This document shows positions 2,154 to 4,924 of a stretch of 64,000 nucleotides of DNA, piece after piece. The notes under the pieces are model-generated. The model made no database searches. It had not been told where the DNA came from and worked only from the letters and a program-made list of their open reading frames with translations. The stretch is from an uncultured Planctomycetota bacterium (lineage in GTDB: Bacteria > Planctomycetota > Planctomycetia > Isosphaerales > Isosphaeraceae): NCBI GenBank assembly GCA_963823665.1, contig CAWGMQ010000012.1:116150-180149 (forward strand), written 5' to 3'. How positions within the stretch are numbered: position 1 is the stretch's first letter; the number at the start of each line of letters is the position of its first letter. Both the position numbers and the translations under genes were made by a program.

Positions 2154-4073
2154 TTAGCCGACCGAATCCGTCGCTCTGGTGGTGACCACTTTGTTCAAAC
2201 GAGCCGTCAACTTCTCGGGCACCTGAAAAAAGTGCTTGCCTTCACGATAGATTTCGACGTCCTTCAGCCACTGAAATGTTCTTGATGAAAGCCTCCAGCA
2301 GAAAACCAATCCCGCCCCAGTCTCCAGGTCCAGTCGGACTACGTTGAAAGCCTTTTCGTAGTGCTCCGCAGCGTACAATGCGCCGGCGGAAATATGACAG
2401 TATTCGCGGCCGGCGAAAAAGGACGCCTGAACGTGCGGGTCGTGCTCGTGCCCGCGAAGAACGAAGTCAAAATACGGGAACGTCTTTCGCTGGTAACGCA
2501 TGTCGTCGAGGATATACCAGTCGGTCTCTGGAGGATGATGCACGAGGGCAAGGCGGATCTGTGCCTCCTGTAATCCCTCCACTGCGTCATCAATCTGTGG
2601 GACGCCCAGAACCAGTCGCCCACGGTCCGCGTCCGAACTGGAGCGCCAAGCGGAATTGAGCCCAGCGATTCCGACGTTGACACCCTTGATTGCTTGAATC
2701 GTGATAAACGAGCCGTATCGATTGAGTAGCGGTTGTCCAAACCGTCCGCATCGCGCCGCAAATGTCTGGAAGTTCTCCAGCCTACGAAAAACTCGCGCAC
2801 GGTCGTCCTCGTAATTATGCGATTTCAGATACTCCATTGTCGCCTGATACGAGGTGAGGAACGCAAGAGCGGCAGTCTCTTCCCGTTGGTACCGTTCAAC
2901 TAGCGGACGATACACGTCGTGATTGCCTGGTACCACCATGATCGGCGCATCGGGCTCGGGTAGGCACGCATGCAGTTGCTCGAGAAACATTAAAGCAATA
3001 TCATATTCCTTGTCGTCACCCGAAAACGCGACATCTCCAGTCAGGAAAACGAAGTCCGGACTGAGATCCTCCTCACCGAGTAACTTGGGTAAGTCTGCGA
3101 TGAACGACTCCTTCACCTTGTCTCCCGCCCAGTCGTTCTGCCGCACTTCCGAGCCGTCTGCCTTGAATTGAAGATCTGAAATGTGAAGCCACGTTAAGGT
3201 CTGGCCTGAAACACGACGGGGCGATTTTCCGGACAACGAAATCACAGCAGGTGCATTGACATTCACTTTCAAGACATTGGGCTTGCGAAGGAAGCTGTCG
3301 ACCGCAACCGACGGGACCTCCGAAGCATGAAGATCCTGCTTTTGGGTCGAGATTGAGTCCGCTGCGCTGGCCCCCGAGCTTTGAACCGTCAAGATTCCCG
3401 CCCAACGCGTCAGGGCATCGCGAAAACGGCCTAACTCTGGACGCACGTTCAACGCCTGCAGCACGGGCAACGCGGGCGAGTCGCCGTTCGCAACCGCACG
3501 CGCCAGATCCCGGAAAAGTCCCGAACGCAAGCAAATCGTCATCGCGTCGCGGCATTCGTAAGCTCCGCCGAACAACTGTTGAGGCAACGCATCCCAGGCC
3601 TGGCGGACTGCGCGGATGGACGGCTGCTCGGCGTCCAGACGCCGCAGAAACGGAAGGACGGACTGTCCTTGGTACTGGGCACAGTGCAAGGCTCCCGGCA
3701 GATCAGCCATCTCCGGGAGAGGCGCGGCGTAGAGTATGGCTTCCAACGAATCGAGCGTCCGCGTCGCGGCGAGGCATTCGTCCAGCTCCTCCGCCGCTTG
3801 AGCGCGAACCTCGTCGGAGTGGCTCGGATCGAGCAATAGCAGGCTTACATCGAGCGCCTCCTCACGCCATACCGCCAGTTCCAACCGCTGCCGAACAGCC
3901 GTGGGATCGCAGTCTTCCAGGAACTCGAGATCTGCCCCTTCCCCGATCAGCAGGTGATACTCGTCGTGTCGCCGCGGAATCAGTTCATCGGGCTCGTCGA
4001 CGTCCAGGGAGAAGAGTTGGTCGCCATGCACGATTAACGCCACACCGGCCCGGCCGGAAATAACCGCATTCAT
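2154..4073 (-). CDS. Uncharacterised N-terminal helical domain fused to C-terminal calcineurin-like metallophosphoesterase
   Basis: 639 aa. Motifs LHISDLQ, TGDVA, PGNHD, HHPP and GHEH lie in the C-terminal half. The start overlaps the stop of the upstream gene (ATGA). Confidence 0.8.
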   Translation of the reverse strand: MNAVISGRAGVALIVHGDQLFSLDVDEPDELIPRRHDEYHLLIGEGADLEFLEDCDPTAVRQRLELAVWREEALDVSLLLLDPSHSDEVRAQAAEELDECLAATRTLDSLEAILYAAPLPEMADLPGALHCAQYQGQSVLPFLRRLDAEQPSIRAVRQAWDALPQQLFGGAYECRDAMTICLRSGLFRDLARAVANGDSPALPVLQALNVRPELGRFRDALTRWAGILTVQSSGASAADSISTQKQDLHASEVPSVAVDSFLRKPNVLKVNVNAPAVISLSGKSPRRVSGQTLTWLHISDLQFKADGSEVRQNDWAGDKVKESFIADLPKLLGEEDLSPDFVFLTGDVAFSGDDKEYDIALMFLEQLHACLPEPDAPIMVVPGNHDVYRPLVERYQREETAALAFLTSYQATMEYLKSHNYEDDRARVFRRLENFQTFAARCGRFGQPLLNRYGSFITIQAIKGVNVGIAGLNSAWRSSSDADRGRLVLGVPQIDDAVEGLQEAQIRLALVHHPPETDWYILDDMRYQRKTFPYFDFVLRGHEHDPHVQASFFAGREYCHISAGALYAAEHYEKAFNVVRLDLETGAGLVFCWRLSSRTFQWLKDVEIYREGKHFFQVPEKLTARLNKVVTTRATDSVG

Positions 4074-4924
4074 TTGCGCACCTCGAATGCGATGTCGGCC
4101 CGGCCAAGCTCAACTTCCACAGCCTGTCGAACGCTTTTCTTCGGCTGGCGCCCCTTGAGTCGAACGATTACCCGCGCGAACATGCGCAATGTCAGCGAGC
4201 CAAAGATATGGACCTCTACGAATTCGTCGGTTGCGGGCGCACCGGGCTTGAGCAGCACTTTCGGAAATTCGGCGGCCGTTGTGTCGCTTTTTAGTCGGTT
4301 CGCCAGCTTTGCCGCCGAGATTCGATGCCGATCATTCCAGGCAGCGCGATAACCGCGAGGTAACTCCGGAGCGTCCCATATCTTGATATCGTGTTTTTTC
4401 ATGAACATCACGCTGTTCTCATCGAATACCGATGCGCGGTGAGCGATCATCTCCTCCTTCATCACGACGGAACAGTTGCCATAGTTGGTCAACCCTTCTC
4501 CATCCAGTGTCAAGGCGGCAAAACGAATCTCCGATTTGACACGGTCGCCAAAAAGGGCCGTGTCGGCCAAGCTCCGTAGAACATCCCAGTTGTCGCCGGC
4601 GGGGATACGGAGTTGAGTCAACTGATAGTAGGTAGCGTACAACTCTTTGTCGCTCCTGGCCAGCCGAGCGACCTCCGCAATCGGTCGAGCAATAACGGCT
4701 TCCGATCCTTGAACGGCGGTTTCAAATTCCTCAAGAATCTGTTGTACTCCGCGAGCGATGGCGTTCTGGCGGGCGCCTTGGTACCGAATCTCAAGAGCTT
4801 GAAGTTCTTCTGGCTCTTCCGCGAGAAGCACATTCGGAAACCGCGATGGCCGCGCGCAATGGGGGCAGGCGGTCCAATCCAGCGGAACCGCAAACTGGCA
4901 ATACGGGCACGGAGCGCTCTGCAT
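4070..4924 (-). CDS. Zn-ribbon protein with putative ADP-ribosyltransferase-like (DUF3626/SopF-like) domain
   Basis: N-terminal CPYC...CPHC. Core motifs RFAALT...NYGNCSVVM and DEFVEVHIFG resemble the [YF]xAL..YG / YIExHxHG pattern. The CDS is solid; the function is inferred. Confidence 0.6.
   Translation of the reverse strand: MQSAPCPYCQFAVPLDWTACPHCARPSRFPNVLLAEEPEELQALEIRYQGARQNAIARGVQQILEEFETAVQGSEAVIARPIAEVARLARSDKELYATYYQLTQLRIPAGDNWDVLRSLADTALFGDRVKSEIRFAALTLDGEGLTNYGNCSVVMKEEMIAHRASVFDENSVMFMKKHDIKIWDAPELPRGYRAAWNDRHRISAAKLANRLKSDTTAAEFPKVLLKPGAPATDEFVEVHIFGSLTLRMFARVIVRLKGRQPKKSVRQAVEVELGRADIAFEVRK

Follow-up and report, generated by a model that had tools for sequence, protein, structure and literature searches.

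The question raised by this locus is what kind of system is formed by two overlapping genes, one of them with an enzyme-like fold and the other with a C-terminal half that differs from genome to genome. Both lie in a 64,000-nucleotide stretch of DNA (here called the window) from an uncultured member of the Isosphaeraceae (Planctomycetota). Gene 1 encodes a Zn ribbon followed by a domain with a predicted ADP-ribosyltransferase (ART) fold, and gene 2 encodes an N-terminal domain (N-domain), a linker, and a calcineurin-like metallophosphatase. An initial annotation, made from the letters of this DNA, had described the pair as a conflict or defence system. We conclude that it is a real, conserved, and undescribed two-gene module, the function of which we infer; a defence role is unproven.

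The two open reading frames (ORFs) share the ATGA overlap from which translational coupling had been claimed, and homologues of both genes were co-located wherever they were sought. Scanning one genome per species confirmed 153 relatives of gene 1, and 80 loci were retained; in all 80 the ORF after gene 1 matched gene 2, always within the N-terminal 190-250 residues, and in 78 of these the match started in the first five residues of the partner. The distance from stop to start was -13, -4, or -1 in 53 of 78 loci and at most 12 nt in 77 of 78. Whole genomes supplied three more loci, all with the pair, which was also present on a Rhizobium leguminosarum plasmid, and 5 of 5 genomes carried equal copy numbers of both genes with the copies adjacent, six pairs in total. 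Only these two genes recurred across the 80 loci, with no third conserved gene. One Pyrinomonadaceae-titled chromosome (G151 C1) held two copies of the pair, at 3025585-3027131 and 5795027-5796621, with TPR partners where checked, and at another locus (L015, 6570-7609) the partner gene was broken into two ORFs, likely by a frameshift or in a decaying copy.

Of 151 genomes sampled from the window's phylum, three carried gene 1, the window's own among them, as did 9 of 81 genomes of the Pyrinomonadaceae-titled family; gene 1 is single-copy in its own assembly, and its tree intermixes phyla. Close relatives were absent from one of two metagenome scans and limited to a single 1.4-kb locus in the other. 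The pair had been called more A/T-rich than its surroundings, which holds for the pair as a whole (57.4% GC, at the 2.3rd percentile among 2771-bp segments, the window having 63.3%) but not for the stretch encoding the gene 2 N-domain, itself at 63.3%; the low value is traceable to gene 1, at 56.6%, and to the phosphoesterase part, at 54.4%. With its patchy distribution, low GC, and phylum-mixing tree, the pair is most likely accessory and horizontally mobile.

As the initial annotation had anticipated, no named system matched. In PADLOC-DB 2.0, gene 1 hit 0 families at E ≤ 1, gene 2 gave matches at the level of its phosphoesterase domain only, and no system fitted both genes. Literature searches, which covered few subscription journals, returned no description of the gene 1 family, of the gene 2 domain predicted to dock it, or of the tails plugged into that domain. 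Pairs of an ART and a partner are already known as a kind; it is this enzyme family, its docking domain, and the plug-in tails that are undescribed in the literature searched.

Gene 1 and its resemblance to SopF

The sequence features first reported for gene 1 were all present: the Zn ribbon, with weak matches to Pfam DZR/Zn_Ribbon (E 0.017-0.18) and with C6, C9, C20, and C23 conserved in at least 95% of 188 homologues, and the FAAL...YG.C and DEFVEVHIFG strings, the former reading IRFAAL..NYGNC in full. Beyond these weak Zn-ribbon matches, searches of Pfam, NCBIfam, and PADLOC gave nothing for gene 1, a phmmer search of the sequences of solved structures gave no match, and a profile search of solved structures gave only the RadA Zn ribbon (E 0.07). 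The family itself is large: a word-indexed search gave 456 matches, and a search of representatives at 50% identity gave 1,439 with E ≤ 1e-3, of which 834 reached 1e-30. Among the best 150 of the 1,439 representatives the length was constant at ~285 aa. Identity across Acidobacteriota, Myxococcota, Planctomycetota, Verrucomicrobiota, and Pseudomonadota was ~48%.

An AlphaFold model of gene 1, built from an alignment of 24 sequences (pLDDT 81.6, pTM 0.82), was used for fold comparison. The Salmonella type III secretion effector SopF (DUF3626/PF12294) headed the Foldseek results (7dn8_A, E 1.3e-5; 7dn9_A, E 1.7e-5; prob 1.00), and the lower rows, CteC, CopC, DarT, and OspC3, were all ADP-ribosyltransferases. 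With VIA-align, SopF scored Z 13.3 (root mean square deviation (rmsd) 3.8, 224 residues aligned, model residues 28-283 on SopF 86-374), followed by OspC3 (Z 9.1), CopC (8.8), Tpt1 (7.8), DarT (7.5), and CteC (5.5). A language-model search also listed the DUF3626 cluster (0.86, 172 shared features). The modelled fold therefore agrees with the original suggestion of an ART-like protein closest to SopF.

The residues that contact nicotinamide adenine dinucleotide (NAD) point the same way. In the accessible part of PMC11937434, SopF activity is blocked by E325A, at a residue touching the N-ribose, and by Y224A and Y240A, at residues touching nicotinamide, and the mutagenesis primers in Table 1 of that source, read by eye, give the contexts IYAAL, AYG, and YIEAHIHG. 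The gene 1 counterparts are RFAAL (134-138), NYG (147-149), and FVEVHIFG (235-242), so that F135, Y148, and E237 would correspond to SopF Y224, Y240, and E325, a correspondence matched by eye over short contexts rather than by superposition. The ExH strand to which the initial annotation had drawn attention thus matches the context of the catalytic E325. Across the 188 homologues, conservation was 100% for E237, 98.9% for H239 and F135, 94% for R134, and 92.6% for Y148. The SopF triad is given as 'I-Y-E' in the portion of PMC10333799 available to us, and gene 1 has Arg (R134) in place of the triad Ile. In its modelled fold and its putative NAD-contact residues, including the catalytic Glu, gene 1 has two of the features by which the ADP-ribosyltransferase superfamily is recognised, and the fold and three known NAD-contact positions appear to agree with those of SopF.

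This resemblance was not accompanied by a significant sequence relationship. Pfam DUF3626 (PF12294) matched 0 of 24 gene 1 family members at E ≤ 10 and was not found in the window's own genome. Homology between gene 1 and DUF3626 was also sought with hhalign and set aside: the result was not significant (Prob <1), with collinear motifs at E 0.082 when a 3-sequence alignment was used and a different register at E 0.14 with 188 against 120 sequences, and it is not counted as evidence of homology. Because gene 1 fails both the DUF3626 hidden Markov model and the profile-profile tests, we treat it as a new ART family, with SopF as its nearest match. The DUF3626 family is itself highly conserved (~55% identity, 1,094 matches at E ≤ 1e-5) and is common in Paenibacillus and Bacillus (loci L082-L084). 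To our knowledge, SopF-type enzymes have been known only as the injected Salmonella effector and as this unstudied family, and we know of no functional study of DUF3626 other than that of SopF.

Set beside known systems, gene 1 is most like SopF, which gave the best fold match, extending along almost the entire protein, with matching NAD-contact contexts, and SopF works with a bound protein partner, as is predicted for gene 1. It differs from SopF in giving no significant sequence or profile match, in its N-terminal Zn ribbon, and in the Arg for Ile before the first aromatic residue; furthermore, gene 1 comes from free-living soil bacteria that would encode a dedicated partner for it, whereas SopF is injected and uses a host GTPase. 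The calmodulin-activated ADP-riboxanases OspC3 and CopC share the ART fold and a helical N-terminal part (Z 8.5-9.1) and themselves need a bound protein, but the match is weaker and their chemistry and host targets are other. DarT-DarG resembles the pair in having the ART gene first and an overlapping partner second, in the ART fold (Z 6.4-7.5), and in its accessory distribution, but gene 2 has no macrodomain (Pfam finds only Metallophos) and its N-domain has no convincing known fold. The pair reveals a large sister family of SopF-type enzymes (1,439 clusters at 50% identity) in free-living bacteria with a built-in partner, and this family may reveal the origin of cofactor-dependent effector ARTs.

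The partner domain and its exchangeable tails

Gene 2 had been described as a helical N-terminal domain, a linker, and a phosphoesterase. The order of parts stands, with an unassigned N-terminal part of ~232 residues followed by linker and Metallophos, but the domain is not purely helical: residues 1-232 are modelled (pLDDT 94.6) as a five-stranded sheet (2-52) ahead of ten helices. Its fold found no convincing known match, the best being E 0.19 with Foldseek and Z 5.5 among 48,161 chains with VIA-align, and the language-model atlas gave nothing usable; this does not imply that the fold is novel. An N-terminal piece of the domain aligned with the type VI immunity protein 6ox6_B (Z 5.1, 57 residues aligned, rmsd 2.7), within the tool's noise.

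That the N-terminal domain docks the ART-like protein, as first proposed, is supported by complex prediction. Gene 1 and the N-domain scored 0.82 (runs 0.75, 0.82, and 0.83), and none of three controls scored above 0.00. In calibration, 116 of 157 solved complexes attained the mark used for this score, as did 2 of 215 mismatched pairs, counts that hold roughly, with our own alignments used. The runs shared at least 74% of contacts, with a partner pLDDT of at least 83. On the gene 1 side the predicted interface comprises residues 79-116 (including a YATYY loop), F135, N147-G149, N170-173, and helix 258-271, and on the partner side residues 2-53, 71-96, and 113-123. The partner would therefore touch the counterparts of both SopF nicotinamide-pocket residues (F135 and N147-G149 for Y224 and Y240). 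The predicted interface also takes in gene 1 residues 93-110, for which the monomer model shows little order (pLDDT 47-69). The interface residues of the partner were better conserved than the remainder (entropy 1.94 vs 2.38, p 2.5e-4), and A3 and S6 at its N-terminus, in the interface region, were conserved in at least 90% of 77 sequences.

Beyond this domain the partners diverge. Among 60 complete partners, 35 carried TPR, one a weak BTAD, 12 nothing recognisable, and 12 other modules, namely CHAT, extracytoplasmic function (ECF) sigma factor (2), HTH_8 (2), phasin (2), treble-clef fingers, Hsp70, ribosomal protein S2, nonribosomal peptide synthetase (NRPS) condensation-adenylation, and sugar transferase. 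The remaining 20, most of them truncated at contig ends and searched at E ≤ 1e-12, comprised four with TPR, one with Lys/Orn oxygenase, and 15 with none; partners lacking a C-terminal module also exist (241-277 aa). Metallophos was present in 0 of the 80 related partners and, beyond the window, in one of nine other matches from a separate search for relatives. The initial annotation had expected a variable fused C-terminal effector: the tail does differ between genomes, but with 35 of 60 being TPR and others being non-enzymes, most tails are not effectors, and for this reason the phosphoesterase cannot be the general effector.

The exchange has a sharp boundary. Relatives with 68-71% identity in the N-domain differ in the tail that follows it (ECF sigma factor, CheY receiver, Cys-rich tail, or metallophosphatase), and among them identity ends at residue 232. 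A tree built from 61 gene 1 sequences requires 21 changes of tail type (minimum 11; shuffled mean 23.8), a number as low being reached in 7 of 200 shuffles, and well-supported sister pairs had unlike tails (CHAT/phasin, Hsp70/TPR, and HTH/zinc finger). On the R. leguminosarum plasmid pRL9b4 (L091, 5974-8350), a gene 1 homologue is followed by an N-domain (E 6.2e-23) in frame with S2 (Pfam 1.4e-96); only the S2 part is annotated in that record, as rpsB, with ~775 bp upstream unannotated. A second N-domain-S2 fusion occurs at locus L049 (3833-5512), in a genome with two S2 genes, one of which is the fusion. The N-domain-S2 fusion is thus real and no gene-calling artefact, and it provides a complete additional copy of S2 in two distant lineages. 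At three other loci (L016, L057, and L020) the partner ORFs continue in frame into NRPS condensation-adenylation, Lys/Orn N-oxygenase, and sugar-transferase domains, respectively, by fusion or by loss of a stop. A docking domain with swapped tails such as S2, Hsp70, and sigma factors offers a natural test bed for the rewiring of one enzyme to many inputs or targets.

The tail of the window copy itself matched Metallophos (PF00149) at gene 2 residues 296-546 (E 5.2e-12, 47 bits against a cut-off of 21.5). The motifs GD, GNHD, HH, and GHEH of the calcineurin-like metal-binding list are present, and motif I (~residues 300-305) reads SDLQF against SDVHF in the closest relative (P0125), the usual His being replaced by Gln, a change that may weaken or alter the metallophosphatase. 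Defence models matched this domain with E 6.9e-31 (DS-8), 1.9e-26 (PADLOC PDC-S60), and 4.2e-14 (DS-9A). A metallophosphatase domain is all that these share with gene 2, which falls far under the family cut-offs (DS-8 model NF053861, 106.8 bits vs 790, covering model positions 31-284 of 994; DS-9A model NF053862, 52.3 bits vs 420), has no NACHT in the Pfam scan, and has no adjoining HAD gene. DS-8 (metallophosphatase plus NACHT) and DS-9 (metallophosphatase plus HAD) are validated phage-defence systems from the DefensePredictor set, and defence by DS-8 and DS-9A depends on metallophosphatase residues, according to the accessible part of PMC13092281.

Possible roles of the pair

The reading that we place first, tentatively and as possible rather than probable, is that the pair is a self-contained, horizontally moving enzyme-plus-regulator module, similar to a toxin-antitoxin or an abortive-infection system, in which the partner is inhibitory or a sensor. 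The gene 1 product would use NAD+ to ADP-ribosylate a conserved cellular target, and would be the effector because it is the sole enzyme common to all members. The N-domain of the partner would bind the enzyme 1:1 and gate its active site as an inhibitor or pseudo-substrate, since the predicted interface includes F135 and N147-G149, and the exchangeable C-terminal module would set when or where the enzyme is released, through the sensing of a trigger or through tethering. In the window copy, the metallophosphatase might bring a further activity of defence type, which the replacement of His by Gln in motif I may have weakened. We rank this reading first for several reasons: the distribution is patchy and mobile, the overlapping gene order is that of a toxin-first pair such as DarTG, the partner is predicted to contact nicotinamide-pocket residues, some tails are HTH or sigma modules like those of DNA-binding antitoxins, and others are of defence type (CHAT and the DS-8-like phosphatase).

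Several observations weigh against it. Gene 1, at ~48% identity across phyla, is unusually conserved for a toxin, and its nearest structural relatives (SopF, OspC3, and CopC) each depend on a bound protein for activation, which favours, by analogy, an activating over an inhibiting partner. The sequence-profile links to DUF3626 were not significant and the SopF residue matches were read by eye from primers, and the gene 1 side of the interface was no more conserved than the remainder (p 0.26). Gene 1 was absent from all 50,697 phage records searched and matched in one of 72,556 plasmids, and 15 Pyrinomonadaceae-type (Acidobacteriota) loci share a housekeeping context of DUF1385, prfA, histidine phosphatase, and nuo genes. 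PADLOC models matched 9 of 125 flanking ORFs in 33 loci (E ≤ 1e-10), all by generic domains, and 0 of 16 neighbours of the pair in its own genome. There was no signal of defence-island enrichment, and the defence label given in the initial annotation is not supported; if the pair does serve in defence, it does so outside defence islands, in regions that neighbourhood methods do not cover.

A somewhat doubtful alternative, in which the pair serves programmable protein modification and is no toxin, makes the N-domain an obligatory cofactor and the tail a carrier that brings the active enzyme to its substrate, with S2 leading to the ribosome, sigma to RNA polymerase, Hsp70 and TPR to their clients, HTH to DNA, and phasin to storage granules. 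We rank it second because the nearest folds are all protein-activated (SopF by ARF1 and OspC3/CopC by calmodulin, in the sections of PMC10333799 and PMC9239266 consulted) and most tails are binders of macromolecules. The poorly ordered gene 1 segment 93-110 in the predicted interface, the in-frame N-domain-S2 fusions, which give each of two distant lineages an additional S2 copy, and the high conservation of gene 1 with its housekeeping context in some Acidobacteriota fit a cofactor as well. Against these stand the metallophosphatase, CHAT, NRPS adenylation, sugar transferase, and Lys/Orn oxygenase tails, which are not obvious tethers, a patchy distribution that would be odd for a housekeeping regulator, and an interface on the nicotinamide-pocket counterparts, which is the place of a substrate or an inhibitor. 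With the partner predicted at the mouth of the active site and A3 and S6 conserved in the interface region, the enzyme might also ADP-ribosylate the N-domain itself, turning it into a receiver-like switch for the fused output (sigma factor, HTH, CheY, phosphatase, protease, or TPR scaffold), and a constant N-terminal domain with varied outputs does resemble response regulators. We consider such a signal-transduction pair quite unlikely, given that no conserved eraser or sensor input lies nearby (only two genes recur in the 80 loci), that module-free partners exist, and that S2, Hsp70, and NRPS would be atypical outputs.

The version of the initial annotation, a writer/eraser pair or a sensor/effector defence system with the phosphoesterase as effector, appears very unlikely. 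The metallophosphatase is of the DS-8/DS-9A kind that is required for phage defence there (PMC13092281, in part), and metallophosphatases that process ADP-ribose derivatives have been proposed for NAD-ADP-ribose conflict systems in the accessible part of PMC9503650, in which a term look-up found no mention of SopF, OspC, or the Zn ribbon. However, a domain found in none of the 80 related partners and one of nine others cannot define the system, the Pfam scan found no macro or ARH eraser domain, the writer/eraser relation has no support, and motif I has Gln for the metal-binding His. The analogy with NLR-like defence proteins is not supported either, as an NTPase is lacking. That gene 1 acts on eukaryotic or bacterial neighbours after secretion or contact delivery, the partner serving as its chaperone or immunity protein, seems highly improbable: its close structural relatives are all injected effectors and the N-domain has a weak likeness to immunity protein 6ox6_B, but that match lies within the tool's noise, no secretion-system genes recur beside the pair among the neighbours of related loci, and gene 1 carries no toxin-delivery domains and is of constant length (best 150 representatives).

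A further, unlikely possibility is that the pair is a programmable ADP-ribosylation module, in which a constant SopF-like enzyme and a constant docking domain receive plugged-in baits or tethers, among them a spare S2, Hsp70, and ECF sigma. In a decoy form it would be a bacterial counterpart of the plant 'integrated decoy' sensor, and phage tampering with the bait would unleash the enzyme; in a targeting form it would aim protein modification at chosen machines. Response-regulator receivers, F-box receptors, and the integrated decoys of plant NLRs likewise combine one constant docking domain with many exchangeable modules, a likeness to the pair that is one of analogy only, with no relation in sequence or fold.

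Layout of the locus and its surroundings

The features of the pair are collected in Table 1. The pair stands alone, with the YdjC-family gene upstream divergent and an ORF at 1489-2079(+) downstream convergent with gene 2 and outside the operon. A promoter scan of the spacer at 4925-5212 gave no consensus sigma-70 site, and a promoter and terminator scan of 1900-5300 gave a number of sites not above that of shuffled sequence.

Table 1. Coordinates and parts of the two-gene module in the window.
Feature	Position	Strand	Size	Description or basis
Gene 1	4070..4924	(-)	284 aa	Four-Cys Zn ribbon (residues 6-23) and predicted SopF-like ADP-ribosyltransferase-fold domain (~28-284)
Gene 1 candidate NAD-pocket residues	R134/F135, Y148, E237, H239			Sequence contexts, conservation, and model
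Gene 2 (whole)	2154..4073	(-)	639 aa	
Gene 2 residues 1-232, conserved docking domain	3378..4073	(-)		Five-stranded sheet and ten helices; predicted gene 1 binder
Gene 2 residues 233-290, non-conserved linker	3204..3377	(-)		Homology with close relatives stops at ~residue 232, the exchange point of C-terminal modules
Gene 2 residues 291-639, calcineurin-like metallophosphatase	2154..3203	(-)		Related to DS-8/DS-9A and PDC-S60 domains
ATGA stop/start overlap of gene 1 and gene 2	4070..4073	(-)		Translational coupling
Spacer between gene 1 and divergent YdjC-family gene	4925..5212		288 bp	Presumed promoter region of the pair

Two neighbours had been named at first. The 'transposase relic' found no backing, as the five ORFs in 501-1531 matched 0 Pfam families at E ≤ 1. 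The orphan nucleotidyltransferase, the ORF at 1489-2079(+), does show similarity to NTP_transf_5 but remains below the Pfam cut-off (26.8 vs 31.2 bits).

The window is the final 64 kb of its contig, in an assembly of 16.46 Mb and 12 contigs (completeness 91.87, contamination 3.48), which is very large for a bacterium. Elsewhere in the window, an ORF of 828 aa at 8951-11437(-), judged by its translation, has an ECF sigma factor-like N-terminus followed by ~600 unassigned residues. Between it and the pair, the long same-strand ORFs 6469-7644 and 7202-8245 (together spanning 6469-8245(-), 64-69% GC) overlap by ~440 bp and possibly represent one frameshifted gene or a spurious high-GC frame.

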